Positions 1 through 20,779 of a DNA stretch of 52,996 nt are shown here, piece by piece; position 1 is the stretch's first letter; each line of letters begins with the position of its first letter. This DNA is from Phycisphaerae bacterium (lineage in GTDB: Bacteria; Planctomycetota; Phycisphaerae; UBA1845; Fen-1342). The notes below the pieces were generated by a model. That model was given only the letters and a program-made list of their open reading frames with translations, was not told where the DNA came from and searched no databases. Location: positions 1 through 52,996 of the forward strand of contig CAXXWX010000022.1 in the NCBI GenBank assembly GCA_963675745.2. Reading direction: 5' to 3'. A program made the translations under genes and the position numbers.

Positions 1-1
1 A

Positions 2-1890: not shown

Positions 1891-1908
1891 TGTAGTGCCT
1901 GCGGCGAC

Positions 1909-2391: not shown

Positions 2392-2487
2392 GAGTCATCC
2401 CGTCGAACAGCGGCGACTGCCGCCGCTGGCATTTAGTTGTCCAACGATCAGGGTTATATCGCGGGGGCGTTTGGGGCTCAAATGGCG

Positions 2488-2594
2488 AAGTCAGAGGTCA
2501 GAGGTCAGAGGTCAGAAGCCAGAAACGCGCTACCGAGTGCAAAACGGGTTTCGAGCGCGAGTATCTGCATTCTGCCTTCTGCATTCCGCATTCT
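2488..2594. repeat. Heptamer tandem repeats (GTCAGAG)n and (TTCTGCA)n-like
   Basis: gtcagaggtcagaggtcagaggtcagaagccaga followed by tctgcattctgccttctgcattccgcattct. Confidence 0.75.
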
Positions 2595-2611
2595 CCCCTT
2601 ATCTTTCCCCC

Positions 2612-3316: not shown

Positions 3317-3323
3317 GTGGCGA

Positions 3324-3470
3324 GGAACAGGGAACGGGGAACGGGGAACAGGGAACAAAAACGGAAGGGCCGGTCGCCCCACCCTTTATCCAACAACCCG
3401 TGTTCCAGCCCCCGTTCCCTGTTCCCTGTTCCCCGTTCCCCGTTCCCCGTTCCCTGTTCCCCGTTCCCTG
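3324..3470. repeat. Inverted pair of heptamer arrays (GGGAAC[A/G])n ... ([C/T]GTTCCC)n
   Basis: ggaacagggaacggggaacggggaacagggaac (~3324-3357) and its reverse-complement array (~3412-3470). Confidence 0.85.
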
Positions 3471-3489
3471 AATCTCTTATAACTCCCCC

Positions 3490-4239
3490 ATGCTCGACCG
3501 CATCCGCATCGTGCTGTACCACCCGACCGGACCGACCAACGTCGGTGCGGTCAGCCGAGCGATGGCGAACATGGGCCTCGCCGAGCTAGTGCTGGTCGCG
3601 CCTAAAAACCCCACCGACCATGAACAGTCAATCGCCTACGCCAGCCACGGCCTGCACGTCCTGCAACGGGCCCGGACCGTCGACACGCTCGAAGAATCCC
3701 TCAACGACTGCGTCAAGACCTACGCCACGTCGTCAAAGCTCGGCCTCTACCGCAGGCAAGCCGCCATCGTCCCCCACGAGGCGGCCCGCGAGGCACTCGC
3801 GCAGGCACGCACCGGCCCGGTCGCAATAGCCTTCGGCCCCGAGAGCTTCGGATTCCGCAACCGCGAACTCCTGCTTTTTGACCGGATTATCACGATTCCG
3901 GCGGATGACGAATACCCCGTGCTGAATCTGGCGGCGGCGGTGACGATCGTCTGCTACGAGGTGCGCAAGGCGTGGCACGGCCTGCGTGATGAATCCCTGC
4001 TGCCGCGTGCGATTGACCATGAACCGGCGCCGGACCAGCGCAAGCAGATCCTGTTCGCCAAGCTCTTCGATGCGCTCGATAATATCGGCTTCTTCTCGGA
4101 TCAGAGTCCGGATAAGCTGAAATACGCCATCCGCCACCTGTTCGGACGCTTTGAGATGACCGTCCACGAGGCGGATGTGATGATTGGAATGGCTCAGCAG
4201 ATTCGCTGGTACGCCGACCACCATCGCAAGCTCACGTGA
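3490..4239 (+). CDS. trmJ: SPOUT RNA methyltransferase, TrmJ/LasT family
   Basis: NVGAVSRAMANMG, FGPE..G, ITIP..YPVLNLAAAVTIVCYE and a TrmJ-type C-terminal helical domain. Confidence 0.85.
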   Translation: MLDRIRIVLYHPTGPTNVGAVSRAMANMGLAELVLVAPKNPTDHEQSIAYASHGLHVLQRARTVDTLEESLNDCVKTYATSSKLGLYRRQAAIVPHEAAREALAQARTGPVAIAFGPESFGFRNRELLLFDRIITIPADDEYPVLNLAAAVTIVCYEVRKAWHGLRDESLLPRAIDHEPAPDQRKQILFAKLFDALDNIGFFSDQSPDKLKYAIRHLFGRFEMTVHEADVMIGMAQQIRWYADHHRKLT

Positions 4240-4519
4240 GCCCGGCGGGTGCTGATATTCCGCCGCGCCACCGCGGCGCACAATCCCGTTTTTTCGCCAG
4301 AGCCCCGTAAATACTCGTTGAATTCTCAAAAAGTGTTCTTGGCGCGAGGCCGCGCTCCCTTAAAATGGAGGTCGTCTTGAGGAGGACGATGCTTCAGCTT
4401 TGAGATACTGGAGGCCGCACGAGATGCGCCTGTTCTGGCGTACAGGTTGGCGGTCATCGAACGGGTTCAGTCGGTGCTGGCCTGTTGTCTTAAGGATCAA
4501 GTCTCGGAGGAGGATTGCA

Positions 4520-5416
4520 ATGAGGAAGGTAGTTTGTTTTGCCGCGATAGCGGCATTGACATCGGTCGCCTTCGGGCAGGTCGCGATCAACGAGGTCGAC
4601 TACAACGGCCCCGGCACAGACATGACCGAGTGGATCGAGTTGACTGGAGCGGCCGGCACTGATCTGACTGGTTGGACGATCAAGCTGTACAACCAGGGCG
4701 CAGAGTACGCAGCCTACCCACTCACCGGCAGCATCCCGAATGACTTCAGCAGCCCGTGGGGCGGCGACGGTGGCTTTTACGTGATGGGCATTTTCGACGC
4801 CACCACTGCGGCCGTGTTTGGAGCGCCGGACTACACCCCCGCCGGTTGGGTTTCGGACGAAATCCAGAACGGCCCGAATGACTCGATCGTGCTCTTCAAC
4901 AATCTGGGCGCGGTCGTCGACGAGTGGGAGTATGACAGCGACACACCCGGCTCGAACTCCATCCTGGGATTCAGCCAGGCGTTCGGCGACTACGATGGTG
5001 CCGGTACGGCCGGTGACATCACGACTTACCAGTCGCTAGGCCGGCTGGGCTACAGCTATGACGAGCCCATCTTCGTCTTTGACGATCCGCAGGCTCAGCT
5101 CGGCGTCGTGAGCTGGAACTACACGTTCGATCACGACCTCAACATCGCCTACAGCGGCACCGGCCCGGCCTGGACTTCGCCGGCCTACACCGGCGCGGCG
5201 TTCACCACCGTCGGCCCGTACACGGAAGCCGCCACCGGCGAGATTCAGTACAGCGGCACCTCGGCCTACGGTGCGAACCGTGGCCTGACCCCCGGCACGT
5301 TTAACAACGCGTACTACGGCGCGGGTGGCCAGGATCCGTACACGATCAACATCGTTCCCGAGCCGGCTTCGCTGCTTCTGCTCGCGTTGGGCGCGCTCGC
5401 ACTGCGTCGCCGCTAG
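4520..5416 (+). CDS. PEP-CTERM protein with N-terminal lamin-tail-like domain
   Basis: GGAGGAGG RBS; signal peptide; INEVDY.G...EWIEL.G..G.DL.GW (LTD motif); C-terminal VPEPASLLLLALGALALRRR. Confidence 0.85.
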   Translation: MRKVVCFAAIAALTSVAFGQVAINEVDYNGPGTDMTEWIELTGAAGTDLTGWTIKLYNQGAEYAAYPLTGSIPNDFSSPWGGDGGFYVMGIFDATTAAVFGAPDYTPAGWVSDEIQNGPNDSIVLFNNLGAVVDEWEYDSDTPGSNSILGFSQAFGDYDGAGTAGDITTYQSLGRLGYSYDEPIFVFDDPQAQLGVVSWNYTFDHDLNIAYSGTGPAWTSPAYTGAAFTTVGPYTEAATGEIQYSGTSAYGANRGLTPGTFNNAYYGAGGQDPYTINIVPEPASLLLLALGALALRRR

Positions 5417-5495
5417 TTTGTGCAGTAATCTAATATGCGCGGCAATGCCCGCGCGGTGCAAATAAACGCCCTAGAGGCACTTGGAGGAGAATAAG

Positions 5496-6194
5496 ATGTA
5501 CAAAGTACTTGTTTCAATCGCTGTCTTGGCGATGGCCACAACGGCCATTGGCCAGACAACCCTGCTAATCGAAGATTTCGAAGACATCGTGGTCGAATAC
5601 ACCACCTCCACGCCGGAGTTCTCGGACGGAGCGGGTGACTTCTGGTTCAACACCTCTGGTCCGCTCACCCATGGTACGTTCGTCGAGTACTTCGGCGCCG
5701 ATGGTGGCATCTTCAACGGCATGGACCTCGATGGCGAAGGCGCCACGCTGCCGCTCGTGATGGACTTCAGCGGCATCGACATCGCCGGCTTCACCGGTCT
5801 GGTGTTCGGCATTGATCTCGCCGAAGATGACGACGGGACCAATGAGGACTGGGACCTGCCCGACTACGTCCACGTCGACTACCAGATCGACGGCGGCGGC
5901 TATCAGAATCTGCTGTGGGTCGAGTCGATTCCGAATGAGACCATTTACAACGCAGTTCCGGGCATTGACGTGGACTTCGATGGCACTGGCGACGGCCCGG
6001 CCATTACCAGCACGTTTGCTCCGTTCAGTGCGGCCATTGGCGGCACCGGCAGCACGCTGGACCTCCGCATCACCTGGCAGCTTGACTCAGGTGACGAGGA
6101 TCTGGCCATTGATAACGTTCAGATCACCGGTGTGCCCGAGCCGGCCAGCCTGCTTCTGCTTGGTCTGGGCTTCCTGGCGATCCGTCGCCGCTAA
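5496..6194 (+). CDS. PEP-CTERM protein (acidic beta-sandwich)
   Basis: GGAGGAG RBS, signal peptide, C-terminal VPEPASLLLLGLGFLAIRRR. Confidence 0.85.
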   Translation: MYKVLVSIAVLAMATTAIGQTTLLIEDFEDIVVEYTTSTPEFSDGAGDFWFNTSGPLTHGTFVEYFGADGGIFNGMDLDGEGATLPLVMDFSGIDIAGFTGLVFGIDLAEDDDGTNEDWDLPDYVHVDYQIDGGGYQNLLWVESIPNETIYNAVPGIDVDFDGTGDGPAITSTFAPFSAAIGGTGSTLDLRITWQLDSGDEDLAIDNVQITGVPEPASLLLLGLGFLAIRRR

Positions 6195-6226
6195 GCTGTA
6201 GCAGCGAAAGCAACACTCGTAACACC

Positions 6227-6265
6227 CGCCGGGTGGGCAGCCGCCGTTGTCCGCCCGGCGTTTTT
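6227..6265 (+). terminator. Rho-independent terminator
   Basis: CGCCGGGTGGGCAGC-cgcc-GTTGTCCGCCCGGCG followed by TTTTT. Confidence 0.75.
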
Positions 6266-6349
6266 GCGCGCGGGCGCAATCGCGCGAACGCTCTGGGCCG
6301 TGGCGGCTCGCGGCGCGGACCGATGACGCGAATGGGCGGTTTCGGTGTG

Positions 6350-6409
6350 CGACGGCCTGCGAGGCGCAGGCCGCTACATTTGCGGGTGCCCCATGGCTTG
6401 CCGTGGGGG
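6350..6409. repeat. REP-like palindromes (family A plus a GGGTG-type copy)
   Basis: CGACGGCCTGCGAGGCGCAGGCCGCTAC recurs at 31321, 40092 and 40126. It is followed by GGGTGCCCCATGGCTTGCCGTGGGG. Confidence 0.7.
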
Positions 6410-6439
6410 AACGACGAATGCCTTGGTGTGTCGTGCCTG

Positions 6440-6868
6440 TCAGTCCCCGCCCAGCTCCGCTTCGAGCAGCTTCTTGACCTTGTCGCAATCATCGCTGTTA
6501 TCGAATGCCAGCGTTGTAACCTGTCGATCGCCCAGGGCCAGCGCTGAGAATCCGCGCAGGCTCACGTTCGCGTCCGAAGCCACCTTGGCAATGCGCGCCC
6601 CGAGCCCGCGCATGTCAGGCCCTTCGATACGCACGGCCCGGAAGCTGTGGTCACGGGCCAGGCCGGCCTGCTGTGCAATCTCTATCTCTTCGAGCGTGCG
6701 CAACGGCGACACAAACAACAGCCCGCCGCCAATCGCCTGACGCCGGCTGATGATCAGCTCCAGGCTGAGCCCGCCCTCGCTCAGGGCTTGCAGTTTTTCG
6801 GCCAATGCGCCGGTGCGATCATCGAGCGCACCGACCCAAACGTGTTCCTTGGTGATTCGGTAAGACAT
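6440..6868 (-). CDS. ACT-domain protein (tandem ACT)
   Basis: DDRTGALAEKL..L...G and GPD.RGLGARI...A..NVSL are two ACT-like loops. ATG 6868 has a GGGGAG RBS. Confidence 0.75.
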   Translation of the reverse strand: MSYRITKEHVWVGALDDRTGALAEKLQALSEGGLSLELIISRRQAIGGGLLFVSPLRTLEEIEIAQQAGLARDHSFRAVRIEGPDMRGLGARIAKVASDANVSLRGFSALALGDRQVTTLAFDNSDDCDKVKKLLEAELGGD

Positions 6869-6983
6869 CGTTTCGTCTCCCCAATTCATCTCGCCGGCAA
6901 CGGTTAGCCTCTTCACCACGCAATGTACCGAGTGTCGCGCCGCACGGCAAACTGCCCCATCACCGCCCGCCCGGGAGGCACCG

Positions 6984-8171
6984 TCAACGGCTGATGAATA
7001 GGTCCATCAGACCGTGTGCCGGATCAACCATCCAGCCGCCGGCCCGCGCATCTTTCTCATTGAACGGCCGTCGCTCGACCGGCTTGATGTCGTGGCCGGC
7101 ATAGCAGAACGGCGGCGGCTCGGCCGAATGTGCCGTCGTCGCCACGGGTGTCGGGTGATCCGGAGCAACCAGCACACGCCACGCATCATCCTCACGCAGC
7201 CGGTCAAGCACAGGCCCGACCACGAGATCATCCGTGCGCTCGAGGGCTGTAATCTTCTCGCCGGCGTCGCCAAGATGGCCCGCTTCGTCCGGCGCCTCCA
7301 CGTGTACGATCACCAGGTCATAGTCATCCAGGGCCCGCACCGCCGCCGTGCCCTTGCCGACGTAGTCCGTGTCAATATAGCCCGTGGCACCCGGAACCTC
7401 TATCAGTTCCATCCCCATGGACAGCGCCAGCCCGCGAATGATGTCCACTCCGGTGATGACCGCGGCGCGAACGCCGAATCGTTCGCGAAATGGCGGAACC
7501 GGCTTTGGACGTCCCTGGCCCCACAGCCAGATATCACTCACCGGCACGCGCCCCGCCGCCCGCCGCGCTTCGTTGATCGGATGGTCCCGCAGCATATCCG
7601 CCGCGGTGTCCATTATCGCACGCACGCGATCCTGCCCCTGCCCCGCCGGCAGGTGATCGGCGACCGGTTCACCCGGAATGTCGTGCGGCGGCGCGCAGCG
7701 CAGCTCATAGTCCGCCGCCGCACCGAGGATCAACAGATTGCGATATGACACGCCCGCGTGGAAGCGGCACTTGTCGCCGGCGAACAGCGTGTTCAAATCG
7801 GCGATCAGACGCTCGGCCTCATCCTGCGCTATATGGTCGGCCGTGAAATCGTTCATGCACCCATCCGCAATCGTAACGAAGTTGCAGCGGAAGATAATCT
7901 CGTCAGGACCGGCGCTCAGCCCGCGCGCCACGGCCTCAATCGGCGCGCGGCCCGTGTAGTATTCGTGCGGGTCATAGCCCAGCAACGCCATCGTGGCCAC
8001 GTCAGTGCCCGGCGTAAACCCAGCGGGCACGGTGAGCGCTCTGCCCAGGCGTCCGTTGCGCGCCACCCAGTCCATGTGCGGGATATTCGCCGCTTCCAGC
8101 GGTGTGCGCCCGCCAAGTTGCGGCAAAGGCTCGTCCGCGGCGCCGTCGGGGAGGATGATCGCGTACTTCAT
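6984..8171 (-). CDS. apgM: Cofactor-independent phosphoglycerate mutase (ApgM; family also proposed as homoserine kinase-like)
   Basis: MKY.IILPDG.AD, PGTDV, FRCN, GVSYR, IWLWGQG, HVEAPDEAGH, APDHPTP. Confidence 0.9.
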   Translation of the reverse strand: MKYAIILPDGAADEPLPQLGGRTPLEAANIPHMDWVARNGRLGRALTVPAGFTPGTDVATMALLGYDPHEYYTGRAPIEAVARGLSAGPDEIIFRCNFVTIADGCMNDFTADHIAQDEAERLIADLNTLFAGDKCRFHAGVSYRNLLILGAAADYELRCAPPHDIPGEPVADHLPAGQGQDRVRAIMDTAADMLRDHPINEARRAAGRVPVSDIWLWGQGRPKPVPPFRERFGVRAAVITGVDIIRGLALSMGMELIEVPGATGYIDTDYVGKGTAAVRALDDYDLVIVHVEAPDEAGHLGDAGEKITALERTDDLVVGPVLDRLREDDAWRVLVAPDHPTPVATTAHSAEPPPFCYAGHDIKPVERRPFNEKDARAGGWMVDPAHGLMDLFISR

Positions 8172-8223
8172 TGAGACTTCCTGTATTTGACCCGCATGCT
8201 CATGCGGTAGTTAAGCCCAACCG

Positions 8224-8247
8224 CACCGGTTGAAAACCGGTACCACA
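8224..8247. repeat. REP-like hairpin (same family as the IS4 target)
   Basis: CACCGGTTGAAAACCGGTACCACA; its reverse complement differs by 1 nt from the reconstructed empty IS site at 48420. Confidence 0.7.
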
Positions 8248-8265
8248 TCGGTCCCGCAGTAGGCT

Positions 8266-9729
8266 CTAGCCTTTCACAACGCCGACGGGGCGCAGGCGCG
8301 CCACGCGCCTGCTGATACCGGCATCGTGCAACACGTCGACAACTTGCACGACATCCTTATAAGCGGCCGGCTGTTCTTCGTTAAGACCGGCGCGGCTCTT
8401 GGAACGCACAAACACGCCGCGATCGAGCAACTCCCGGTGAATCGACCGGCCCTTGGCCGCCTTGTTGGCGGCGGTGCGCGACATCAAGCGCCCCGCGCCG
8501 TGGCAGGCGCTGCCGAAAGTCTCGCTCATCGCTCCGGGCGTGCCTACCAGGATGTAACTGTAACGCCCCATATCGCCGGGGACGAGCACGGGTTGCCCCA
8601 CCTGGCGATAGGCCGCCGGCACGTCTTCATGCCCGGCTGGAAAGGCGCGCGTGGCCCCCTTGCGGTGTACGCACAAAGAGCGCTCCACACCATCCACGTC
8701 AAAGCGTTCAATCTTCGCGATGTTGTGGGCCACGTCATAGACCAACCGCATTCCGAGTTGGTCGGCGGATCGGCTCAGGGCTTTCTCGAACGCGCGGCGA
8801 ACGAGGTGAGTCATGATCTGCCGATTGGCCCAGGCGTAGTTCGCCGCGGCGCGCATCGCGCCCAGATAACGTTGCCCCTCATCCGAGTGCACCGGCGCGC
8901 AGACGAGCTGCCGATCGGGCAGTTCGATGCCGTACTTCTTCGGCACGTCGCGCAGAGCCTTGAGTGCATCGTCGCACACCTGGTAACCGAGGCCGCGCGA
9001 ACCGGAGTGGATCATCACGCACACCTGCCCGACGGCGAGCCCGAAGGCCCCGGCGGCCTCTTCGTCCTCGATTTTCTCGATAACCTGGACCTCCAGGAAG
9101 TGGTTGCCGGCCCCGAGCGACCCGCACTGAGTCTCCCCGCGCTCGAACGCGCGCTCCGACACGAAACCCGGCCGGGCGTTCTCAAGGCATCCGTGGGCCT
9201 CGGTAACCTCGATGTCTTCGGGCCTGCCATAGCCGCGCTCAACAACGTACCGCGCGCCGCGTTCGAGCAACTGGCCCAACTCGGGCTTCTTGAACCGGCT
9301 CGCCCCACCGCTGCCAACGCCGCACGGCACCGTGTCAAACAGCGCATCAACCAGCGCGGGCACGCACCCCTTTACATCAGCGTAGTCGATATCGGAGCGT
9401 ACCAGGCGCACGCCGCAGTTGATGTCGTAGCCGACGCCGCCCGGGCTGATCACGCCGCCCTCGGCCGGATCGGTGGCCGCAACGCCGCCGATGGCGAAGC
9501 CATAACCCCAGTGAATGTCGGGCATGGCGAGCGAAGCACTGACAATGCCAGGCAAACACGCGACGTTGGCAACTTGCTCCGGAGCGTTGTCCTGGCGAAT
9601 CTTGTCGATGAGCGCGGCGTTTGCATAGATGATGCCGTCCACGCGCATGTCAGCCCGGTGCGCTTTGGGAATGCGCCAGCGATTCTCGTCAAGGCGTTCG
9701 AGCGGGCCGTCGTAGCCGCGTTTGCCCAT
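8266..9729 (-). CDS. rtcB: RNA 3'-phosphate/5'-OH ligase RtcB (archaeal/eukaryote-like long form)
   Basis: MPDIHWGYGF.IGGV, GVGYDINCG, G.GNHFLE, HSGSRG, YDVAHN, HRKGAT, HGAGR, AYKD. Confidence 0.97.
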   Translation of the reverse strand: MGKRGYDGPLERLDENRWRIPKAHRADMRVDGIIYANAALIDKIRQDNAPEQVANVACLPGIVSASLAMPDIHWGYGFAIGGVAATDPAEGGVISPGGVGYDINCGVRLVRSDIDYADVKGCVPALVDALFDTVPCGVGSGGASRFKKPELGQLLERGARYVVERGYGRPEDIEVTEAHGCLENARPGFVSERAFERGETQCGSLGAGNHFLEVQVIEKIEDEEAAGAFGLAVGQVCVMIHSGSRGLGYQVCDDALKALRDVPKKYGIELPDRQLVCAPVHSDEGQRYLGAMRAAANYAWANRQIMTHLVRRAFEKALSRSADQLGMRLVYDVAHNIAKIERFDVDGVERSLCVHRKGATRAFPAGHEDVPAAYRQVGQPVLVPGDMGRYSYILVGTPGAMSETFGSACHGAGRLMSRTAANKAAKGRSIHRELLDRGVFVRSKSRAGLNEEQPAAYKDVVQVVDVLHDAGISRRVARLRPVGVVKG

Positions 9730-9816
9730 GGTGTTTGCAGCTCCTTGAGAGCGATCAGCGGTCAGCTCGTGGGATCGACGTCCGGTCAGTCATCCGTGTT
9801 CCGCGCGCTGGTTTGA

Positions 9817-10236
9817 TCATATATCTACTATAAACGTGGCCTCGTAGCCGTTCTGTACCTGGCGAATGTCCAGTTCATGATACGTGATCGCCTTCACTTC
9901 GCGCTGCAGCGCGCTGGCATCACGATCCACATCACATAGCCCGGCCCGCACGCTCAGATGACGGTCATCGAATTGCACGTCGCCGATCCGGCCCACGATC
10001 CGGCCCTGCGTTTCGAAACAGTGCAGCAACTCGGTGAGATAGTCGTGCAGCAGATACGGCGGGTCGTCGCCGGCAAACTCGAAGCCGACCTGACGTTCAC
10101 CGCCACACGCCACAATCTCGCCGATGCACGAATAAAAGCCGCGCGTGGCGGGCTCAACCAGCGCGACCAGCGACGGCGCCCAAACGCGCGTCCCCAAATC
10201 CGCCGTATGCTCAAAATGTTCAAACCCAGCATCCAT
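9817..10236 (-). CDS. Archease (RtcB activator)
   Basis: FEHFEHTAD N-terminus, EVKAITYH motif and C-terminal IVDI; lies immediately upstream of rtcB. Confidence 0.93.
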   Translation of the reverse strand: MDAGFEHFEHTADLGTRVWAPSLVALVEPATRGFYSCIGEIVACGGERQVGFEFAGDDPPYLLHDYLTELLHCFETQGRIVGRIGDVQFDDRHLSVRAGLCDVDRDASALQREVKAITYHELDIRQVQNGYEATFIVDI

Positions 10237-10390
10237 ATCACGTAGAGTACGTCCACAGTGTAGGGTAGGTCGAGCCCGGCGCGACCTGCCCTACCTCCGC
10301 CACTCCGGTTGCTGACGTCCGGCGCGTCCTGCATAATCCACGTGGCAGCGGTTGGTGCATGTCTTTGTCCGCGGCATAAGTGAGGGCGCA

Positions 10391-12049
10391 ATGTCGGATG
10401 TCAATCTCCCGGTCGTGATCGGCGCGTTCGTCGTATATACGCTGGCGATTGTGCTCATCGGGCTCTGGTCCGCCCGTTTTGCCCGGCGCAGCGATGAAGA
10501 CTACTTTCTGGCCGGCCGCTCGCTCAACGCGTGGGTCGCGGCCCTGTCGGCGTCAGCGTCGAGCGAATCCGGTTGGGTGACCCTGGGACTGGTTGGCTGG
10601 GCCTTTACGGAGGGTGTCAAGGCGTACTGGATCATCCCCGGATGCCTGGCTGGTTTTGCATTCAACTGGTTCTTTATCGCCGGCCGAATGAGCGATCGCG
10701 CGCGAACGCTAAACGCCCTGACACTGCCGGATTTCTTCTCCTTCAACTTTCGCGAACGCCTCCCGCTGTTGCGCACGCTCTCGGTGATCGTGATCCTGGT
10801 CGCCATGTTCCTTTACGTGTCGGCCCAGTTCGCGGCCGCCGGCAAGGCCTTTGGTGTGATCATCGACCACGTGGCCGGTACGGCGCCACAGGCCGTCGAA
10901 ACGGCTGAGGCGACGGCGACTCCCCAGACGCCGGCCAGCCCGCTGGCCGTATTCACTAACCCCGGCCGCCTCATCCCAACCGAGTGGGGCGGCTACCAGT
11001 ACGGCGTGCTGATGGGCGGGCTGATCGTCCTGCTGTACACGACCACCGGCGGATTCAGGGCCGTCTGCTGGACCGATTTTCTTCAGGCGTTGCTGATGGT
11101 CGGGACGCTCGTGGTCTTCCCGATCTACCTCTTCATGCACGAGGGCGGGTGGGAATTCATCGCACAACACCTTGGCACCGGCGGCGGAGAGCTGCTCGAA
11201 TTCTGCCCCCGAGTGGGTATTTTCGCGTTCATCGGCTTCATCTTCGGAAGCGGCGCGCTCGGAATCAACTTCGGCTATCCCGGCCAACCGCATGTGCTTG
11301 TGCGCTTCATGGCACTCAAGGATCGCCGAGCGGCGATTGTCGGCGGGATTGTCGCAATCGTCTGGGGCGCGCTGGTGTATTGGGGCGCGGTGACGGTCGG
11401 TCTCTTTGCCCGAGCCATGGCCGAAGCCGGCGCCGACTGGGCCACACCCATGGTGGAGAACAAGGAGATCTACGGCGAACTCGGGTTGGTGTTGGCGTCG
11501 TTGCACATGCTGCGACCGCTCATGTCCGGGCTGGTGCTCGCCGCGGTGTTGGCCGCCATCTGCTCGACCGCGGACAGCCAGATTGTCGTTGCGGCCAGTT
11601 CAGTGGCGAATGACCTTTATGCCCGGGTGGTTCGTCGCGCCCGTGGCGCATCGCACATGCTGGTAAACCGCCTGACTGTTGTATCGCTGGGTGTGCTGGC
11701 CGCCGTGTCGGTGCTGAACCAGGAAGTGCGCGTCTATGTGTACGTGCTCACTTACGGCTGGGCGGTGCTTGGCGCGTCGTTTGGCCCGCAGGTGATTCTG
11801 GCACTGCTTTGGAAACGCGCGTCATACCTGGGCTGCCTCGCCGGCATGATGGTCGGCTTCGGCATCGCCCTGTACTGGCCCACGCTTTACTCCAAGGAAA
11901 TCCAGCAAGCCACCGGCGTACACATCTACAACCTGACGATCGCCTTCATCGCGGCCCTGGTCGTAAACGTAATCGTCAGCCTCCTGACATTCCGAAACAC
12001 CGAGCGGACAACAGACAACACACCAAGCGAACCAGCGACAAGCGCGTAA
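10391..12049 (+). CDS. putP: Sodium/proline symporter (SSS family)
   Basis: DYFLAGRSL, LSA.AS..SGW, GGFRAV.WTD..Q, FGYPGQPH...RFM, AA..STADSQ, W..LGASFGP; many TM helices. Confidence 0.9.
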   Translation: MSDVNLPVVIGAFVVYTLAIVLIGLWSARFARRSDEDYFLAGRSLNAWVAALSASASSESGWVTLGLVGWAFTEGVKAYWIIPGCLAGFAFNWFFIAGRMSDRARTLNALTLPDFFSFNFRERLPLLRTLSVIVILVAMFLYVSAQFAAAGKAFGVIIDHVAGTAPQAVETAEATATPQTPASPLAVFTNPGRLIPTEWGGYQYGVLMGGLIVLLYTTTGGFRAVCWTDFLQALLMVGTLVVFPIYLFMHEGGWEFIAQHLGTGGGELLEFCPRVGIFAFIGFIFGSGALGINFGYPGQPHVLVRFMALKDRRAAIVGGIVAIVWGALVYWGAVTVGLFARAMAEAGADWATPMVENKEIYGELGLVLASLHMLRPLMSGLVLAAVLAAICSTADSQIVVAASSVANDLYARVVRRARGASHMLVNRLTVVSLGVLAAVSVLNQEVRVYVYVLTYGWAVLGASFGPQVILALLWKRASYLGCLAGMMVGFGIALYWPTLYSKEIQQATGVHIYNLTIAFIAALVVNVIVSLLTFRNTERTTDNTPSEPATSA

Positions 12050-12076
12050 CCAAAGCTCCGTGCGCGCGCCCAGTCA

Positions 12077-12150
12077 CCTGGTTGCCTAGTTGCCTGGTTG
12101 CCTTGCCGCCTCGTGGCCTTGTGGCCTTGTGGCCTTGTGGCCTCCTCCCC
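12077..12150 (+). repeat. Octamer tandem repeats (GCCTnGTT / GCCTTGTG)
   Basis: cctggttgcctagttgcctggttgccttgccgcctcgtggccttgtggccttgtggccttgtggcctcc. Confidence 0.8.
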
Positions 12151-12163
12151 GCCCACATCACCC

Positions 12164-12192
12164 TTGACCCCAAGGCGCCAACTTGTTAGCCT
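12164..12192 (+). promoter_or_regulatory. Sigma70-type promoter of the B12 cassette
   Basis: TTGACC-17 bp-TAGCCT with TG at the extended -10, directly before the riboswitch. Confidence 0.55.
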
Positions 12193-12199
12193 GCGCACA

Positions 12200-12421
12200 T
12201 CGGTTGCTGGTGTTCGCGCACTCGTGGTGTGCGGAAGAATAGGGAATCCGGTGAGAATCCGGAGCGGCCCCGCCGCTGTGACCGGGAACGAACGCTGCCT
12301 GGTTAGTCATTGGCCCGCCTTGGCGGGCTGAGAAGACGCAGCTAGTAGGCCGCTGAGCCGCCTCGCGCGAGATGGTGTGCTCGGCAACGCCCGGAAGTCA
12401 GAAGACCTGCCAGTCAGACCA
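12200..12421 (+). promoter_or_regulatory. Cobalamin (B12) riboswitch
   Basis: GGTG...AATAGGGAATCCGGTGAGAATCCGGAGCGGCCCCGCCGCTGTGA, GTCATTGG...CTGAGAAGAC, and B12 box GGAAGTCAGAAGACCTGCC. Confidence 0.93.
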
Positions 12422-12679
12422 TACATCGGAATGCCTTCGAGGGAAGGTCGGTGTTTACGTACACTCACTTCGGTAAAGCCTGCGGGCTTCCCATGCTACA
12501 AGTGAATTCGCCTGCCCACGCGGCATGCACTGTGCGCTTGACAACCGTAACCCTCGGACGTGCAGCGCTGCGCCGTCTATTGCCGGCGCGCGCCCTCGAC
12601 TGTCGAATGGCCCTTGGAGGAGCGGCCGCGGCGGCTGAGGTTCTTGGGAAGGAAGCTGCTTTCGAGGAGGAGGTTGCAA

Positions 12680-13729
12680 GTGAGAGGATTGAGGCTACTG
12701 GTTGTGGGGGTGACTGCCTGGAGCGCCATGGGCACCACCGTCGCGCAGCTTGATTTCACACCGGCCCCGGGTTTCGTCGCAAACGAAGTCTGGTCCGGCA
12801 GCGGCGTCGCACACTTCGCTATCGAGGGTGGTGCTCTCTACATCTACGGGGCCGAGGCCATTGGCGGCGGGCAGTTCCAGAACGTGGTGAGACTCTTCGA
12901 TGGCGCCGCGACGACCGAGATCGCCCGTTCACCGGCGTACGCGCAAGACACGTATTTCCCCGACGCAATCGCCGTGGCAAACGGCGAGGTCTACTGGACG
13001 CACGCCACCAGCTACCCCACCGGCAGTCATGCCAATCTCTGCAAGACGACTTTCGACGGCCTGAGCTGGACGACCACCGAGATCATCGATGAGTCGGCCA
13101 GTATCGGCGTGTACGGCTTGTGCACAAACGGGCAGCGCGTGTTCGGCACGGGTCTCAGCGCCGCGAACGTCAACGTCAGCTTCTATCTCGACGAGACCGA
13201 CGGCTACAACGTCTTCGCCGAGTTGCCGGCCGACGCCAGCGGTGGTTGCGGATTCGACCCCGAAGGAGATTTCTTCGCCGGTGCGTGGAGTGTCGGCGGA
13301 GACTACGACAACCACATGTACCGTTACTCCGCGCAGCAGGTGTCTGAGCGCCTCACCGGAATACAGCCGGGGCCTTACACGTCGGCTGACGCGATTGCTG
13401 ATTTTCTTGTCAGCGGCAACGGTTCGCCGGTCATGGAGAGCGACGGGACCAGCCTGTTCGGGACGCAGTACAACTCAACCTGGACCGGACTCGATCCATA
13501 CACGTACGACCTCCAGACCGGAATAACGACGTCGCTCGGCACCCTGTCAGGCGCAGCCACAAACGTGGTGACTGACATGTACGCCCGCGACGGAAGCGTT
13601 TATTTCCTGGGAAAGAACGACTGGGGTACTGGTAGTGAAGCAGTGATTTATACGATGGTGCCGGAACCGTCTTCATTATACCTACTGGCCGTGGGCCTGT
13701 GCCTGCTGCCGTACCGGCGCCTGATATAG
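12680..13729 (+). CDS. PEP-CTERM protein, probable beta-propeller, first gene under the B12 riboswitch
   Basis: GAGGAGGAGG RBS before GTG, signal peptide, beta-rich repeats, C-terminal VPEPSSLYLLAVGLCLL..RR. Confidence 0.8.
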   Translation: MRGLRLLVVGVTAWSAMGTTVAQLDFTPAPGFVANEVWSGSGVAHFAIEGGALYIYGAEAIGGGQFQNVVRLFDGAATTEIARSPAYAQDTYFPDAIAVANGEVYWTHATSYPTGSHANLCKTTFDGLSWTTTEIIDESASIGVYGLCTNGQRVFGTGLSAANVNVSFYLDETDGYNVFAELPADASGGCGFDPEGDFFAGAWSVGGDYDNHMYRYSAQQVSERLTGIQPGPYTSADAIADFLVSGNGSPVMESDGTSLFGTQYNSTWTGLDPYTYDLQTGITTSLGTLSGAATNVVTDMYARDGSVYFLGKNDWGTGSEAVIYTMVPEPSSLYLLAVGLCLLPYRRLI

Positions 13730-13752
13730 GTGCGTTCCGGATGGGATGGAAG

Positions 13753-13798
13753 GGCGGGGAGCGCGGCCCGCAGGGTGATCGCGCTTCCCGCCGCTTTC
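13753..13798 (+). terminator. Intra-operon stem-loop (possible attenuator or stabiliser)
   Basis: GGCGGGGAGCGCG...CGCGCTTCCCGCC followed by GCTTTC. Confidence 0.4.
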
Positions 13799-13903
13799 AA
13801 GCGTTGGTGGGAGCATCCCCATACATGTAGCGCCGGCAGTCCATCGGCGTGAGATCCATCCGGGGCCGGCGGGGTATTTGTACCACGCGTAATGGAAGGC
13901 GTG

Positions 13904-15019
13904 ATGTATAGACAATCTGTACCGATTATCTGTTTTGCACTGGCTCTGGTCGCCGCACGATCGGCGCGCGCTGAGCAACCGTACGCTACAACCGTGATCG
14001 ATTTCCAACCGGCGCCCGGCCAGTTCGTAAACGATCCCCTGTTCAACGACCCGGCCGCCGCCATCGGCTGGCCGATCGGCATGGATCCCAACATCCCCAG
14101 CAACGAATCCCTGGTTTCACTCGGCGGGTTCGGCGGCTCGCTCACGCTGGCGTTCGATCACACCGTCCTCGACGACCCCGCCAATCCGTTCGGGCTCGAT
14201 GCGATCGTCTACAGCAACGCCCTGTGGGTCAGCGGCAACCCAAACCGTAAGTGGGCCGAGTGCGGCGTGATCGAGATCAGCCGCGACACAAATGCAAACG
14301 AGCTCGCCGATGATCCCTGGTACCTGATCCCCGGTTCGCACATCCACTTCGAGCCGAGCCAGTATGAATGGCAAACCTGGGATGACAACGTGCTCGACCC
14401 GAATTACCCGCCGCTGGACGAAAGCTGGATCCCACCCGGCCAATCCGGGACGTGGACCACCGAGGGCTACCACCTGCCGCCCGCGATTTTCGACGCCATC
14501 ATTGTCGAGAATCCGAACGGGCCGGAGGCCGAGACCGAGGCGATCTTCGGCTACGCCGACTTCTCGCCGACGGTCGGACTGCCGATACTGGCGGCGCCTA
14601 ACGGTTTCTACACACGACCGGACAACCCGTACAAGGTCGGCATAACACCAGGCGCTGGCGGCGGTGACGGATTCGACATCGCCTGGGCGGTTGACGCCAC
14701 GACCTGGCAGCCGGCCAATCTCGATGGGTTCGATTTCATTCGCATAACCGTCGGCGTAAACTTCGTCTCGTTCAATCCACCGTTGGGTGAGCTCTCAACA
14801 GAGATTGACGCGGTGACCGACGTCGCCGAAGGTCAGTTCGGCGATGTCGCCAACGACGGCGACATCGATGGCGACGACTTCGCGCAGATGCGCGAGTGCT
14901 TTGGCGGCGTGGGCGAGCTGATTCCGCCCAGCCCATGCCGGGTGATGGATTTTGATCAGGACCAGGATCTTGACCTGGCCGACTGGTATGGGTTCCAGTC
15001 GGCATTCACAGGGCCGTGA
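13904..15019 (+). CDS. Secreted BtuH-like cell-surface-protein domain plus C-terminal dockerin-like EF-hand pair
   Basis: Signal peptide; PAPGQFVN, VSLGGFGG..T.AFDH, DD.WY, GYAD, FDI.WAVD, DFIRI..GV and GE.STEI motifs, as I recall them from Bacteroidota B12-locus surface proteins; tail GDVANDGDIDGDDF...DFDQDQDLDLADW. Confidence 0.65.
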   Translation: MYRQSVPIICFALALVAARSARAEQPYATTVIDFQPAPGQFVNDPLFNDPAAAIGWPIGMDPNIPSNESLVSLGGFGGSLTLAFDHTVLDDPANPFGLDAIVYSNALWVSGNPNRKWAECGVIEISRDTNANELADDPWYLIPGSHIHFEPSQYEWQTWDDNVLDPNYPPLDESWIPPGQSGTWTTEGYHLPPAIFDAIIVENPNGPEAETEAIFGYADFSPTVGLPILAAPNGFYTRPDNPYKVGITPGAGGGDGFDIAWAVDATTWQPANLDGFDFIRITVGVNFVSFNPPLGELSTEIDAVTDVAEGQFGDVANDGDIDGDDFAQMRECFGGVGELIPPSPCRVMDFDQDQDLDLADWYGFQSAFTGP

Positions 15020-15029
15020 CGGAACGCAG

Positions 15030-15860
15030 ATGCCCAGGTTCTCGACAAGCCGCCACATCCGCGCCTCAGCCGTCCGCGGCTTTACGCTGGTCGAGCTGCT
15101 CGTGGTTGTCGCGATCATCGCGCTGCTGCTGGCGGTGCTGCTACCCGGCCTGAGCGGCGCCAGAGCGCAAGCGCGTGCCGTGGTATGCGCCTCGAACATT
15201 CGGCAACTCGCCATCGCCAACACCGCCTACACCGCAGATAACGAGGGCCGCTTCTGCCCGGGAGCCGCCGGCATCCGTGTCCGCAATCTACACCGCTGGC
15301 ACGGTATACGCGCGAGCAAGTCCCAACCGTTCGACCCACTGCGCGGTCCGCTCGTCGGTTACGTGTCGGGCCAGGTCGCCGTGCGAGCATGCCCCGGCTT
15401 CCGCCGGAAAGTCACCGGACGGACCGGCGCGTTCGAGAGCGGCTGTGGTGGGTACGGATACAACCAGGCATATGTCGGACGCGTGATGCGGCCGCGCCGA
15501 AACGGATCGTGGGAGATTCTCACGGACCTTTACGGCGTGATGTCCGAGCGTGTCACCCGGCCCGCGCAAACACTGATGTTCGCCGACACGGCGTTCGCGT
15601 CGATCGCTGACGGCGTAATCGAGTACAGCTTCGCCGAGCCGCGCTTTCACCCGCAATACATTCACTTCAATGCCCGCATGGACCCGTCGATCCACTTTCG
15701 TCACAGCGGCCGAAGCAACACCGCCTGGTGTGACGGGCACGTCGACAACCGCAGCCGCACGTACACCTGGAAGAGCGGTGTATACGTCGGCGATCCCGAG
15801 GTATGGCGGATCGGCTGGTTTGGCGCGGACGACGACAACAGCCTGTTCGACCTGAACTGA
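15030..15860 (+). CDS. Prepilin-type N-terminal cleavage/methylation protein with H-X9-DG motif (DUF1559-like PVC family)
   Basis: G|FTLVELLVVVAIIALLLAVLLPGL, C.SN.RQ, YGYN and FRHSGRSNTAWCDGHV. Confidence 0.9.
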   Translation: MPRFSTSRHIRASAVRGFTLVELLVVVAIIALLLAVLLPGLSGARAQARAVVCASNIRQLAIANTAYTADNEGRFCPGAAGIRVRNLHRWHGIRASKSQPFDPLRGPLVGYVSGQVAVRACPGFRRKVTGRTGAFESGCGGYGYNQAYVGRVMRPRRNGSWEILTDLYGVMSERVTRPAQTLMFADTAFASIADGVIEYSFAEPRFHPQYIHFNARMDPSIHFRHSGRSNTAWCDGHVDNRSRTYTWKSGVYVGDPEVWRIGWFGADDDNSLFDLN

Positions 15861-16109: not shown

Positions 16110-16817
16110 ATGAGCCGCTTGATTATCGCCGCAGTCGTGGCATTCATCGTGATAAGCCTGGTGAGCGTCACACCCGCGAATGCCGGGCCAATAGTGATGG
16201 TCCGCGACGAGGCCGGCGGATCGGGGTATTATCGAACCGGCACAACCAGCCGGCTGCACGCGACATTGGATGGCAGCAGTTTCACATCTCTCTATTCAGG
16301 CACATTCGCGTTCGAGGCGGACTACGGCGCTGGCTGGACACCTCTGACAACCTACTGCATCGACCCCTATCAACCCGTTCGATTCGCCAATTTCCCCCAA
16401 GACAGGGCCGGCTGGCCCTATGACCTGGTCGCACTGGACGCGCTCGACGGCATCACCACGCCGGAACGCGACCAGCTTGAGTTGCTCTGGGAAAACGCGC
16501 TGGCCAGCTCTTTGACCGACCGCGTGCACGCGGCGGCCTTTCAGGTGATCATCTGGGAGCTGAAGATCGACGACGCACTCGACCTGGCCAGCGGGGACTT
16601 CCGCCTGGATACCTCGCGGCAATATGAAGCCGACGTCGCCAGCGTCGCCCAACCCTGGATCGACGAGCTAGCCGCCCCATCGACCTGGACGAAACGCGCG
16701 CCACTGTGGGGCCTGTACAGCGAGGCGTCGCAGGATTTCATCACGCCCATTCCCGAACCGGCAACGCTGTTACTGCTGATCGGCGGCACGTTCCTCCTGC
16801 TGTTCCTGCCCCGGTAG
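16110..16817 (+). CDS. PEP-CTERM protein with thioester-domain-like motifs
   Basis: AGGAG RBS, signal peptide, TYCIDP, AAFQVIIWE, late SQD motif, IPEPATLLLL tail. Confidence 0.8.
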   Translation: MSRLIIAAVVAFIVISLVSVTPANAGPIVMVRDEAGGSGYYRTGTTSRLHATLDGSSFTSLYSGTFAFEADYGAGWTPLTTYCIDPYQPVRFANFPQDRAGWPYDLVALDALDGITTPERDQLELLWENALASSLTDRVHAAAFQVIIWELKIDDALDLASGDFRLDTSRQYEADVASVAQPWIDELAAPSTWTKRAPLWGLYSEASQDFITPIPEPATLLLLIGGTFLLLFLPR

Positions 16818-18109: not shown

Positions 18110-20779
18110 ATGCAACGAAACACGCAAACCATCTGGCTCAGACTCGCCTGTGCGGCAGTATTGCTCGCAGGCAGCGCGTCGGTATTGGCCGACCCGTACT
18201 TTTCTCTAGATTCGCTCGATGACTGGAACCAGGCCATGAGCGAGCACATCGTCCCGCTGGAACCCACACAGTGGGACCAGTACATGGACGAGTGGATGAT
18301 GTACACCGAAGAGGGTGATCCTTACCCCTCGACGCTGTTCCAACCGGCACAGCTTTACACGTACGATGAAGGCGGCCCGTTCGAGGCGCCGGGGCTGGTC
18401 ATGGCCTGGGGGCCTGATCCTGTTCCCGGTGACCAGTTCGCCAGCGCCTGGGTCTACGACTACGGCCCCGACCCCAACCTCGCGAACGCCATCATCACCG
18501 TCGCCGTTTTGCCGCCGAGCTGGGGTGGCAGCGGCATCACCCAGATTTCGTTCGGCATCCAGGACATCAACGGCAACACGCGCTCGTGGTACTGGAACGT
18601 CGGCCCCGGTCAGACCATTCCGTGGGACGTCAGCACGTACATCGTGATTGACTGCTCGCAGACCGGCGCCGCGGCGGCCACACCGGTCGCCGACGGTTAC
18701 ATGAACAACCCGGCGTTCAATATCGCCAACGCCCAGCTCTTCATCGCCGACGAGAATGGATCCGTCGTCGATCAGATCCCAGTCCCGCCGCCCGGCGGGC
18801 CGCCCTCGGGGCTCTGGAACTACTGGCACAACCTGACCGTCGAGCCGAAGCTTGGCGAGACCAAGTGGGAGCAGTATCCCTCGTTCAATCCCGATCCGAA
18901 TCAGCCCTTCCCCGATTGCTTCTGGGGTTGGGATGAATACTCGGAGTACCTGCTGGGCCCGATCGCCGCGGACGACTTCCTTTGCCAGACGCCTCTCCCG
19001 ATCACCGACATTCACTGGTGGGGCTCGTACCCCGGTTGGTGGCAGTGGGAGCCGCCTCAGAACGCCCCGCAGACGTTCCACATCGGCATCTGGACGGACG
19101 TGGCACTCAATGACCCCGGCAACATGTTCCCGTATAGCCACCCCGGCCGGCTGATCAAGGAGTGGTGGGTGGCGCGCTCGGCGCTCAATGAGCATGTCGT
19201 CGGCTGCGACTACCACCCGATGATGTTGCTCAACCCGGAGACGACTTTCCGCTATGACTTCCTGATTCCGCAGAGTGACTGGTTCTACCAGGAGGACGGC
19301 GTCAATGTGTACTGGCTGAGCATCGCGCCGGTCAACGCCGCTGGCGCGGACTTCTATCCGTGGGGTTGGCTTACACGCCAGCCGGTCTGGAACGACGCCG
19401 CGATTCGTATAAACCAGCCGCAGGCTCCGGTCATCGGTAGTGTGTTCCAGTATGGCGACCCAATCATGATCGGTGCCGAGGAGGCGTGGGATCTTGCCTT
19501 CGTCCTGACGACCACGTTTGAAGAGCCCGAGCCCTACCTGATCGAGTTCTCGCTCGACATCGGTTCTGACACCGAGATGAGCGATCCGCAGCGCGACGGC
19601 GACGAAGGCTTCGATCCGGGCGACGTCTACTGGTGGCAGGGCGCGCCGGTCAATTACCCCGGTCGCGACGGCTTCAAGGATGACACGTTCATCTTCAGCG
19701 GCTTTGACCCGTGGCCGGACCCGCCCGATCCCAACTACACCACGGCCGCTCCGGTCGGCTACGGTACGCCGCAGGATTACTACGAGTGGTTCGACCTCGA
19801 CGGCCATGATCAGATCGAGCTTGACCTTACCGAGATCGTGCCCCTCGAGGAGCCGCTGACGCATCCGATCAGTTCGATGGTATCGCAGTGCATCTACGAC
19901 CCGTACCACCTGCTCATTTCGTTCGACGATGACATGCGTCCCGGTTACATCACGGGCGATGTACCGGTGGCCGCCCCATCGCCGGCCGGTGTCAGCAGCT
20001 ACGGCTCGACCGCTACGGTAGACGAGGTGATCGCAATCGACCTGATGCCCGCGGCCACGTTGCCTTTGCCGATCGCGGCCGTCATGCCGTTTGCCGACGA
20101 GGTCACCGTACACGGCAGCCTCGCGCCGAACCCGGATACGGGCGACGACAAGGACGACGATGACGTCGATTCTCTCGACATCGTCCCTGATCGGCAGCTC
20201 TGCCCGAACTGGTACTTCAGCCCCGACCATGAGGCCAACCTCACGCTGGATCCCGGCGCGATCTACCTGGCCACTGCCGCCGGTCCGGTCAAGGTCATCG
20301 ACGAGATCCACTATGGCCTGCCCGATGACGTCGACATCGATGCCTTCGAGTTTGTCTACCTGACCGATCCGTCCGGGCTGTACGGGCTGGGCGTGATCTT
20401 CAGTGTTGACGAAGACGACCCGGTCACGCCGGGTGACGAGTCAGGCGGCCTTCCGCCGGACATGCTCTTCGGCTCGCTGCTGATGGGCACGTTCTTCCAG
20501 GTGAGCGATCCCCTGGGCGACGACATCGACGCCGTCACCTGCTGGAGAGACACGCTGATCGAGGGGCCGCCTTGCCTCGATCCGGGTGACTCGAACTGCG
20601 ACGGGCTCGTCAACAATGGCGACATCGATCCGTTCGTGGTCGCGGTCTCGGCTGGTCAAGCCGCCTGGGAGGCGCTGCCGACGTCGACCTGTGACTTCTT
20701 CTGTGCCAATGACGTCAACAACGATGGCTTGGTGAACAACGGCGACATTGATCCGTTCGTCGCACTACTCTCCAAGTAA
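18110..20779 (+). CDS. Large acidic secreted multidomain protein with C-terminal dockerin-like repeat
   Basis: GGGAGG RBS, signal peptide; KWEQ.P...ADDFLC...ITDIHWWGSY domain; repeated FS.D / D[IVL]D[AGS] motifs; GDSNCDGLVNNGDIDPFV and DVNNDGLVNNGDIDPFV. Confidence 0.85.
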   Translation: MQRNTQTIWLRLACAAVLLAGSASVLADPYFSLDSLDDWNQAMSEHIVPLEPTQWDQYMDEWMMYTEEGDPYPSTLFQPAQLYTYDEGGPFEAPGLVMAWGPDPVPGDQFASAWVYDYGPDPNLANAIITVAVLPPSWGGSGITQISFGIQDINGNTRSWYWNVGPGQTIPWDVSTYIVIDCSQTGAAAATPVADGYMNNPAFNIANAQLFIADENGSVVDQIPVPPPGGPPSGLWNYWHNLTVEPKLGETKWEQYPSFNPDPNQPFPDCFWGWDEYSEYLLGPIAADDFLCQTPLPITDIHWWGSYPGWWQWEPPQNAPQTFHIGIWTDVALNDPGNMFPYSHPGRLIKEWWVARSALNEHVVGCDYHPMMLLNPETTFRYDFLIPQSDWFYQEDGVNVYWLSIAPVNAAGADFYPWGWLTRQPVWNDAAIRINQPQAPVIGSVFQYGDPIMIGAEEAWDLAFVLTTTFEEPEPYLIEFSLDIGSDTEMSDPQRDGDEGFDPGDVYWWQGAPVNYPGRDGFKDDTFIFSGFDPWPDPPDPNYTTAAPVGYGTPQDYYEWFDLDGHDQIELDLTEIVPLEEPLTHPISSMVSQCIYDPYHLLISFDDDMRPGYITGDVPVAAPSPAGVSSYGSTATVDEVIAIDLMPAATLPLPIAAVMPFADEVTVHGSLAPNPDTGDDKDDDDVDSLDIVPDRQLCPNWYFSPDHEANLTLDPGAIYLATAAGPVKVIDEIHYGLPDDVDIDAFEFVYLTDPSGLYGLGVIFSVDEDDPVTPGDESGGLPPDMLFGSLLMGTFFQVSDPLGDDIDAVTCWRDTLIEGPPCLDPGDSNCDGLVNNGDIDPFVVAVSAGQAAWEALPTSTCDFFCANDVNNDGLVNNGDIDPFVALLSK

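Follow-up and report, generated by a model that had tools for sequence, protein, structure and literature searches.

The window analysed here, a 52,996-nucleotide stretch of DNA from a Phycisphaerae bacterium (GenBank assembly GCA_963675745.2, contig CAXXWX010000022.1), carries a cobalamin (vitamin B12) riboswitch followed by three genes for exported proteins: a beta-propeller with a PEP-CTERM tail (gene 1), a protein with a BtuH-type B12-binding domain and a dockerin-like tail (gene 2), and a prepilin (gene 3). In diderm bacteria, passage of B12 across the outer membrane is attributed to the TonB-dependent receptor BtuB. Because the riboswitch and the pilin recur together in relatives that mostly show no usual receptor, the pilin likely aids the passage of B12 across the outer membrane, and the cassette is likely a B12 uptake module whose pilin-like protein is predicted to take the outer-membrane role of BtuB. 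More specifically, surface binders would capture B12 and the pilin would carry it via a pilus/secretin machine to BtuFCD, a reading to which we give, from gene content and sequence, a probability of roughly 55%. The features of the cassette, numbered by position in the window, are as follows.

12164 to 12192, plus strand: promoter-like site of the sigma-70 type, TTGACC-N17-TAGCCT with TG ahead of the −10 box (read from the sequence; putative function)
12191 to 12429, plus strand: cobalamin riboswitch aptamer (Rfam model RF00174)
12433 to 12448, plus strand: small hairpin directly 3' of the aptamer, P13-like (from the fold)
12680 to 13729, plus strand: gene 1, 349 amino acids; signal peptide, predicted six-bladed beta-propeller, PEP-CTERM tail; the variable slot 1
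13747 to 13799, plus strand: strong G+C hairpin 3' of gene 1, without a clear U-tract (−41.3 kcal/mol, z −3.9)
13904 to 15019, plus strand: gene 2, 371 amino acids; signal peptide, BtuH-type B12-binding domain, dockerin-like tail; slot 2
15030 to 15860, plus strand: gene 3, 276 amino acids; prepilin (G|FTLVE) with an H-X9-DG head, of a riboswitch-tied subfamily; the constant core

A cobalamin riboswitch heads the cassette

The original prediction, made from the letters of the window, had described a promoter, a clear B12 riboswitch and three co-directional genes for exported proteins, the last two 10 bp apart, and each of these was borne out. A scan with the Rfam cobalamin model returned RF00174 at 98.9 bits (E = 1.4e-23, gathering score 31.5), with the full model (1-189) covered. 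The hairpin at 12433 to 12448, which resembles P13, is followed by a leader of about 230 nt that runs to the start codon of gene 1, and a terminator scan of the riboswitch leader gave no U-tract terminator among those listed. The TTGACC-N17-TAGCCT site is present ahead of the aptamer; a strict promoter scan did not pick it, and among 60 loci (the window counted) 31 have the pattern TTGAC-N16-18-TAnnnT just 5' of the riboswitch, versus 0 of 59 control stretches farther upstream. We infer that the riboswitch represses the genes downstream in a B12-dependent manner. All three genes lie on the plus strand with 10 nt between genes 2 and 3, and their starts agree with the protein database entries P0001, P0028 and P0148. 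As had also been claimed, no BtuB, BtuCDF, ECF or cob family was matched among the 35 open reading frames (ORFs) scanned in the window.

Within the host genome, which is 91% complete, RF00174 was found at the window locus and in one copy on contig C2, with no others found. The second match arises because positions 1-13047 of the window are duplicated over 13 kb at 98.7% identity at the end of that contig (G000:C2:106318-119373), probably as a strain variant within the bin.

The riboswitch and the prepilin form the conserved unit

We searched 61 genomes of the host family and order, the host included, and counted pilins by profile searches, since automatic gene calls miss some of them. RF00174 occurs in 57 of the 61, mostly as a single copy, and the pilin subfamily in the same 57; G001, G016, G025 and G029 have neither. 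Among 56 relatives, the pilin lies at most 6 kb downstream of 55 of 64 riboswitch matches (53 genomes), a linkage that is partly circular because 45 of these pilins built the profile. Several of the remaining nine riboswitch matches sit near contig ends.

A reverse test started from 80 loci found by the pilin alone, using only the clade-A alignment; these overlap partly with the relatives and are not independent of them. A riboswitch was present in 52 of the 55 loci having at least 4.4 kb of upstream sequence, a long BtuH gene in 67 of the 70 having at least 1.3 kb, and a TonB receptor in none of the 80. The riboswitch model in this test was our own nhmmer profile, which gave no hits in nine Rfam-negative loci and 3 of 3 in two positive loci.

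The gene layout was read from 60 of the 64 riboswitch loci of the relatives, with two more fetched later. It runs from a PEP-CTERM protein through a second protein, mostly one with a dockerin-like tail, to the pilin, after which the genes are unrelated from locus to locus, the commonest of them being a metallophosphoesterase. For this reason we rejected as cassette members the further PEP-CTERM gene at 16110-16817 of the window, which is not conserved with the cassette, and an upstream sodium:solute symporter. Slot 1 varies: across the 61 clade-A loci that have a riboswitch as well as BtuH it holds a 40-member propeller family in 40, a DUF4465/BtuJ cluster in 11, the gene-1 family in seven and a singleton in one, and is empty in two. 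The conserved unit is thus the riboswitch plus the pilin, joined by a partner gene whose type goes with the clade of the pilin, and not the exact triad. A survey behind cobalamin riboswitches, as the original prediction had proposed, therefore upheld the riboswitch/pilin pair (53 of 56 relatives) and not the triad, the gene-1 family occurring in 7 of 80 loci of the clade.

A quick tree of 47 pilin heads resolved four clades (SH-like approximate likelihood ratio test support 94-99), each spanning three or more host families, with a long-branch warning on the join of two of them. The gene upstream of the pilin follows these clades. The first has a long BtuH gene there in 14 of 15 loci, the second a pyrroloquinoline quinone (PQQ)-type propeller in 16 of 21, the third a shorter BtuH-related gene in all 7, and the fourth another family in all 4. 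This match could come from co-inherited neighbours. It would also fit a pilin that acts as a cargo adaptor, bringing the binder with the dockerin-like tail to a type II secretion or pilus machine that sets it on the surface, while B12 crosses by another route. We regard this as unlikely: in eight loci the pilin follows the riboswitch as first gene, with no upstream surface partner (L065, L119, L128, L132, L136, L149, L280 and G110:C6), it stands beside BtuF, BtuC and BtuD in three, and no other outer-membrane gene is conserved among the loci.

In loci sampled across the phylum, pilin and TonB receptor stand behind separate riboswitches

From a wider sample of 140 genomes we fetched 80 riboswitch loci, about one per genome, out of some 165 matches. 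Among the genes called in these loci, the pilin is present in 14 and a TonB receptor in at least 21, and no locus has both. Strong pilin matches beyond the host genome number 20, of which 17 lie behind a riboswitch; in G073 the contig ends upstream, and G155 and G130, of one genus, have strong matches without a riboswitch. Of the 19 genomes with the pilin, 4 have a TonB receptor of any kind, versus 91 of the 121 others. As kin are non-independent, a Fisher test (p = 9e-6) serves as description only.

At L128, L129 and L155 the pilin is encoded together with BtuF, BtuC and BtuD, and at L132 it accompanies BtuF. Such co-location could come from a pilin that serves as a periplasmic anchor and concentrates B12 for BtuF, with outer-membrane passage left unspecific; an archaeal precedent exists in the bindosome (PMC2910488, available in part), and DUF1559, the family to which the pilin belongs, carries the Pfam name 'SBP_bac_10'. 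An anchor of this kind leaves unexplained both the mutual exclusion of pilin and BtuB at the level of the locus and the coupling to surface-type partners, and the protein retains a full pilin-like helix and E5, so that we hold it distinctly unlikely. In L119, L132 and L136 the pilin occurs together with a DUF6580 gene or a diphthamide-synthase-like gene; DUF6580 and the diphthamide-synthase-like ATPase recur at the cobalamin-riboswitch loci L049, L119, L132, L136 and L168.

Several other arrangements were seen behind cobalamin riboswitches. Genes of the OprB porin family (cluster c17) follow them in L123, L143 and L181, another possible non-TonB route. Riboswitch-led loci free of the pilin carry families c5 (L106, L111, L121, L134), c6 (L116, L126, L145) and c11 (L127, L131, L144, L169), which comprise propellers of the seven-bladed type, IPT/TIG proteins and one family with kinship to gene 1 (hhalign 81%). 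In L113 (G186) the riboswitch heads a B12-independent class I ribonucleotide reductase pair, a known kind of regulation.

Host genomes show no sign of B12 synthesis and mostly no TonB receptor

CbiD was found in none of the 61 genomes, and the host genome has no match to CobU, CobT, CobS, CobQ, CbiK or BtuR. It has 13 matches to B12-binding domains, 12 of them above the cut-off, a PduO-type adenosyltransferase, a BtuF gene adjoining a BtuD-like ABC ATPase on C6 and a BtuC-like FecCD permease on C15; a FecCD/BtuC-type permease is present in 54 of the 61 genomes. Neither TIGR01779 nor PF00593 detected a TonB receptor in 41 of the 61, and 20 have one. Of the 53 relatives in which the cassette is linked, 35 gave no receptor match. 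The original prediction had asked whether btuB exists elsewhere in the genome, and a single TonB receptor was found, in whose vicinity no riboswitch was matched. In the first 60 loci fetched, the only riboswitch-led receptor is that of G003, on a 2 kb contig. It had been proposed that the capture system replaces or feeds the TonB route; of the two, replacement agrees better with the data. A planctomycete order that shows no sign of B12 synthesis, and mostly no TonB receptor, keeps a pilin behind its usually single B12 riboswitch.

Since all three products are exported and pilins are generally known to act as adhesins, the cassette could instead be a surface programme of B12 starvation, one that hoards B12 or attaches the cell to B12 producers and takes no part in membrane passage; BtuJ1 is described, in the part of the literature available, as an extracellular reservoir. 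This we consider very improbable, for it leaves B12-requiring genomes without an import route and does not explain why the pilin stands beside BtuF, BtuC and BtuD and is absent from BtuB loci. For pilin-mediated passage, the host genome encodes five secretins and five PilT proteins above the cut-off and one prepilin peptidase.

Gene 2 carries a BtuH-type domain

BtuH is a demonstrated family of B12 binders (PMC8941943, available in part). Gene 2 had been called a BtuH-like protein with a dockerin, and its homology to BtuH was confirmed: residues 29-308 match the B12-binding domain at the C-terminus of BtuH2 (7BIZ, E = 1.7e-14), a comparable match was obtained to 8BLW_B (E = 2e-14), and searches with BtuH-domain profiles gave E = 2.9e-19 and 2.5e-29. 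In BtuH2, as described in the available part of PMC13616437, a Na/Ca site formed by N399, E406, D522, S582 and E584 grips the phosphate of the nucleotide loop; Q333/F334 are named too. In the 7BIZ alignment these residues correspond to N105, E119, S298, E300, Q40 and F41 of gene 2, and D219 was paired with D522 by eye through a GYxD motif, not by the aligner. Among 120 homologues, N105, E119 and S298 are kept in all, E300 in 119, Q40 in 116, D219 in 109 and F41 in 94. Y189/H190 align with Y475/H476 of BtuH2, and the F401 position is L in gene 2 and F in 54 of 120 homologues.

As to the dockerin part of the call, the tail of this copy has no Pfam match, and homologues do match PF00404. No lipobox cysteine was read past the signal region of gene 2. 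As many as 192 ORFs of the host genome match the dockerin-like tail profile against a single marginal cohesin match, so the tail may be a sorting tag of the lineage.

Gene 3 is a dedicated prepilin paralogue

Gene 3 was correctly recognised from the start as a prepilin of the H-X9-DG kind. It has an N-methylation motif, scores above the cut-offs of both TIGR02532 and TIGR04294 and reaches 18.4 against PF07596 (DUF1559), below the cut-off of 23.3. With a class III signal (G|F, E5), a long N-terminal helix and a pilin-like core, it has the marks of a type IV pilin, and its top fold match is the type IV pilin PilA4, at a modest Z of 5.7 (root-mean-square deviation (rmsd) 3.1, 121 residues aligned). 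The head gave no Foldseek match at E ≤ 0.001 and no Protein Data Bank (PDB) profile match below E 0.1; its Atlas neighbours are unnamed clusters, with Verrucomicrobiota the commonest phylum.

The host genome has about 30 H-X9-DG/DUF1559 prepilin paralogues. A profile built from 31 pilins less than 35% identical to gene 3 scores gene 3 at 80.9 bits and the next paralogue at 29.5; gene 3 is therefore a dedicated paralogue by a test that is not circular. In L176 (G130:C1), a riboswitch at 972665-972853 heads a DUF1559 prepilin of another subfamily (PF07596, 197 bits). A member of the gene 3 subfamily without a riboswitch lies at L307:3739-9174 (G054), a few genes from a pair that resembles a B12-dependent mutase by its motifs.

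Structure prediction of a complex between genes 2 and 3 scored 0.42 against 0.01 for the best control, with runs sharing at least 75% of contacts and a predicted local distance difference test score (pLDDT) of at least 82 for the partner. Of 157 solved pairs 116 pass the mark set for this score, as do 2 of 215 mismatched ones, and at 0.60 or below these comprise 18 solved pairs and both mismatches. The model weakly suggests that the BtuH-domain protein docks on the pilin head. The same prediction would suit, as weakly, a pilin that recruits cargo, as would the neighbourhoods of the paralogues: 10 of 30 have a dockerin-tail gene no farther than 1.5 kb away (about 10% expected), and for 6 of 30 a PEP-CTERM gene is close by (about 2.5% expected). 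Clusters of PEP-CTERM, prepilin and dockerin-tail genes without a cobalamin riboswitch were seen at G000:C3:202442-206221, C15:41177-46999, C23:69651-71863, C24:6439-14731 and C26:34390-43418.

On the strength of the B12 case and of these neighbourhoods, we offer tentatively, at somewhat less than even odds, a wider reading in which H-X9-DG/DUF1559 prepilins are substrate-specific receptors for pilus-driven, TonB-independent import in planctomycetes and their kin, with the gene 3 subfamily as the B12 member. The paralogues, some 30 in each genome and often neighbours of PEP-CTERM or dockerin-tail proteins, might then serve other nutrients, by analogy with TonB receptors and their SusD-type partners in Bacteroidota.

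Gene 1 is a PEP-CTERM propeller followed by a hairpin

The view of gene 1 as a probable propeller with a PEP-CTERM tail was strengthened. Its AlphaFold 2 model is a beta-propeller with a confident pLDDT of 89.8, and the count of six blades is taken from the strand list of that model. The best fold matches are generic propellers (EupfF, Z 21.7, rmsd 3.6, 269 aligned), and no PDB sequence match was found below E 0.3. BtuG and BtuK, to which gene 1 may yet be akin, gave no specific match by fold (among the matches listed), sequence profile or Atlas features. The tail scores 17 in Pfam, under the cut-off of 20.7, and has the C-terminal PEP motif, membrane helix and basic end of an exosortase substrate; VPEP at residues 327-330 is invariant among 27 homologues, and the host genome has three exosortase matches. 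The gene is related to the 40-member propeller family of slot 1 (hhalign 97%).

Hairpins similar to that at 13747-13799 lie behind 22 of 40 slot-1 PEP-CTERM genes versus 2 of 40 in-gene controls, and behind 8 of 48 pilin genes, being absent after most. Those inspected behind PEP-CTERM genes of relatives mostly lack a U-tract. In relatives, the apparent gap of 0-2 nt between genes 1 and 2 was discarded as an artefact of taking the first start, as hairpins occupy that interval. Because 30 of the 53 PEP-CTERM genes of the host genome have a strong G+C hairpin (z < −2) within 100 nt downstream, the hairpin is a general mark of PEP-CTERM 3' ends and not a signal specific to the cassette; it is a possible general mRNA-end signal of these genes. 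In the window it may stabilise the message or partly end it. Other cassette loci have no such hairpin and in eight the pilin comes first after the riboswitch, and B12 control of the pilin gene is therefore likely in general; for the window copy it is presumed.

A candidate route for B12 and the points against it

We propose the following route, in which pilin-mediated passage is the central step. Upon B12 shortage, the riboswitch would release expression of the three cassette genes. The PEP-CTERM propeller, probably produced in excess because of the hairpin behind its gene, and the BtuH-domain protein would be exported and, judging from their homologues, bind corrinoids at the surface. The BtuH protein is predicted to dock on the pilin head. 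The prepilin peptidase would process the pilin, which would join a type IV pilus or pseudopilus as a minor subunit; retraction of that structure would move B12 through a secretin into the periplasm. From there, the BtuF-BtuC-BtuD-type genes found elsewhere in the genome may pass it over the inner membrane. We count in favour of this route that the proven B12-binder families BtuH and DUF4465 fill cassette slots. DUF4465 proteins of Planctomycetes-Verrucomicrobia-Chlamydiae (PVC) bacteria, among them that of Mucisphaera calidilacus, co-purify with B12 (PMC13398666, available in part).

Several observations weigh against pilin-mediated import. G003 has a riboswitch-led TonB receptor, and G153 has both a pilin cassette and, at a separate locus, a riboswitch-led BtuB; in incomplete genomes, moreover, divergent receptors could be overlooked. 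The secretin and PilT copies are unlinked to the cassette, and the hairpin behind gene 1 could terminate transcription before genes 2 and 3. In gene 2, the corrin contacts Tyr510, Trp511 and Trp577 of BtuH2 have no clear counterpart (W577 aligns to P), and the His476 position is mostly Arg among homologues (R in 70 of 120). A recognised B12-binding fold is lacking in the pilin head, whose closest match is PilA4. The exact triad is present in a minority of loci, and pilins without a riboswitch occur in G155, G130, G054, L228, L240 and L287. The capture system first proposed for this locus thus draws support from B12 control, from a homologue of B12 binders and from a pilin at the place of BtuB, and loses the triad as its unit.

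If the pilin does move B12, it would represent a new route of nutrient import, and a large, unexplained prepilin family that is expanded in planctomycetes would have its first substrate. The cassette also points to candidate B12-binding families, namely two related propeller families, a PQQ-type propeller and short BtuH-like domains.

Other features of the window

Elsewhere in the window we noted the following.

8266 to 10236, minus strand: archease adjoining an RtcB ligase, an RNA-repair pair
18110 to 20779: exported DUF7901 protein of 889 amino acids with a dockerin-like tail, not conserved with the cassette
34874 to 34918: Acido-Lenti-1 RNA motif (39.1 bits, barely over the threshold)
41088 to 41161: tRNA
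43346 to 45784, minus strand: KAP-family NTPase with leucine-rich repeats, with internal DNA repeats at 43436-43789
48426 to 49963: DDE transposase element, of which the genome has four or more additional copies (more than 99% identical)

Comparison with known systems

In competence, type IV pili take up DNA by means of a substrate-binding minor pilin. ComP of Neisseria, the structures of which (5HZ7 and 2NBA) are among the listed fold matches of gene 3, shares with it the pilin fold and the capture, retraction and secretin passage proposed here. In contrast to ComP, gene 3 would have a small cofactor as its substrate, has a larger head (about 200 amino acids) and is encoded alongside a partner binder; a mechanism of this kind is a proposal here. 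The Sulfolobus bindosome/Bas system likewise ties nutrient uptake to a pilus-type assembly machine and to proteins whose signal peptides are of class III (prepilin), but differs in being archaeal, without an outer membrane or a riboswitch, and in using sugar-binding ABC proteins (PMC2910488, in its available part). A further paper, PMC12530212, was set aside as irrelevant, since the PEP-CTERM genes in its available part follow cyclic di-GMP riboswitches.

Gene 3 shares the N-methylation and H-X9-DG motifs of the DUF1559/H-X9-DG family (PF07596, TIGR04294, TIGR02532), for which no function was found in the literature searched; unlike the family at large, its subfamily is tied to B12 riboswitches. 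The same literature, which included few subscription papers, yielded no prepilins linked to cobalamin riboswitches or B12 uptake, and the words pilin, pilus, Planctomyc and Verrucomicrob do not occur in the available part of PMC13616437. The arrangement is new in that no such system was found there.

The closest counterpart is the Btu relay of Bacteroides thetaiotaomicron, in which, from the available parts of PMC13616437 and PMC8941943, BtuJ, BtuH, BtuK and BtuG lead to BtuB and then to BtuFCD. Common to both are cobalamin-riboswitch control, the surface-binder domains BtuH and DUF4465/BtuJ, beta-propellers and BtuFCD-type inner-membrane genes. Unlike the lipoproteins of the relay, the cassette binders end in PEP-CTERM or dockerin-like tails, and unlike the seven-bladed BtuG and BtuK, gene 1 is predicted to be six-bladed. 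The cassette loci have no BtuB, and the prepilin is their constant gene. Judged by its sequences, the cassette is a widely conserved arrangement whose putative capture parts resemble those of the Bacteroides relay, with a pilin in BtuB's stead.

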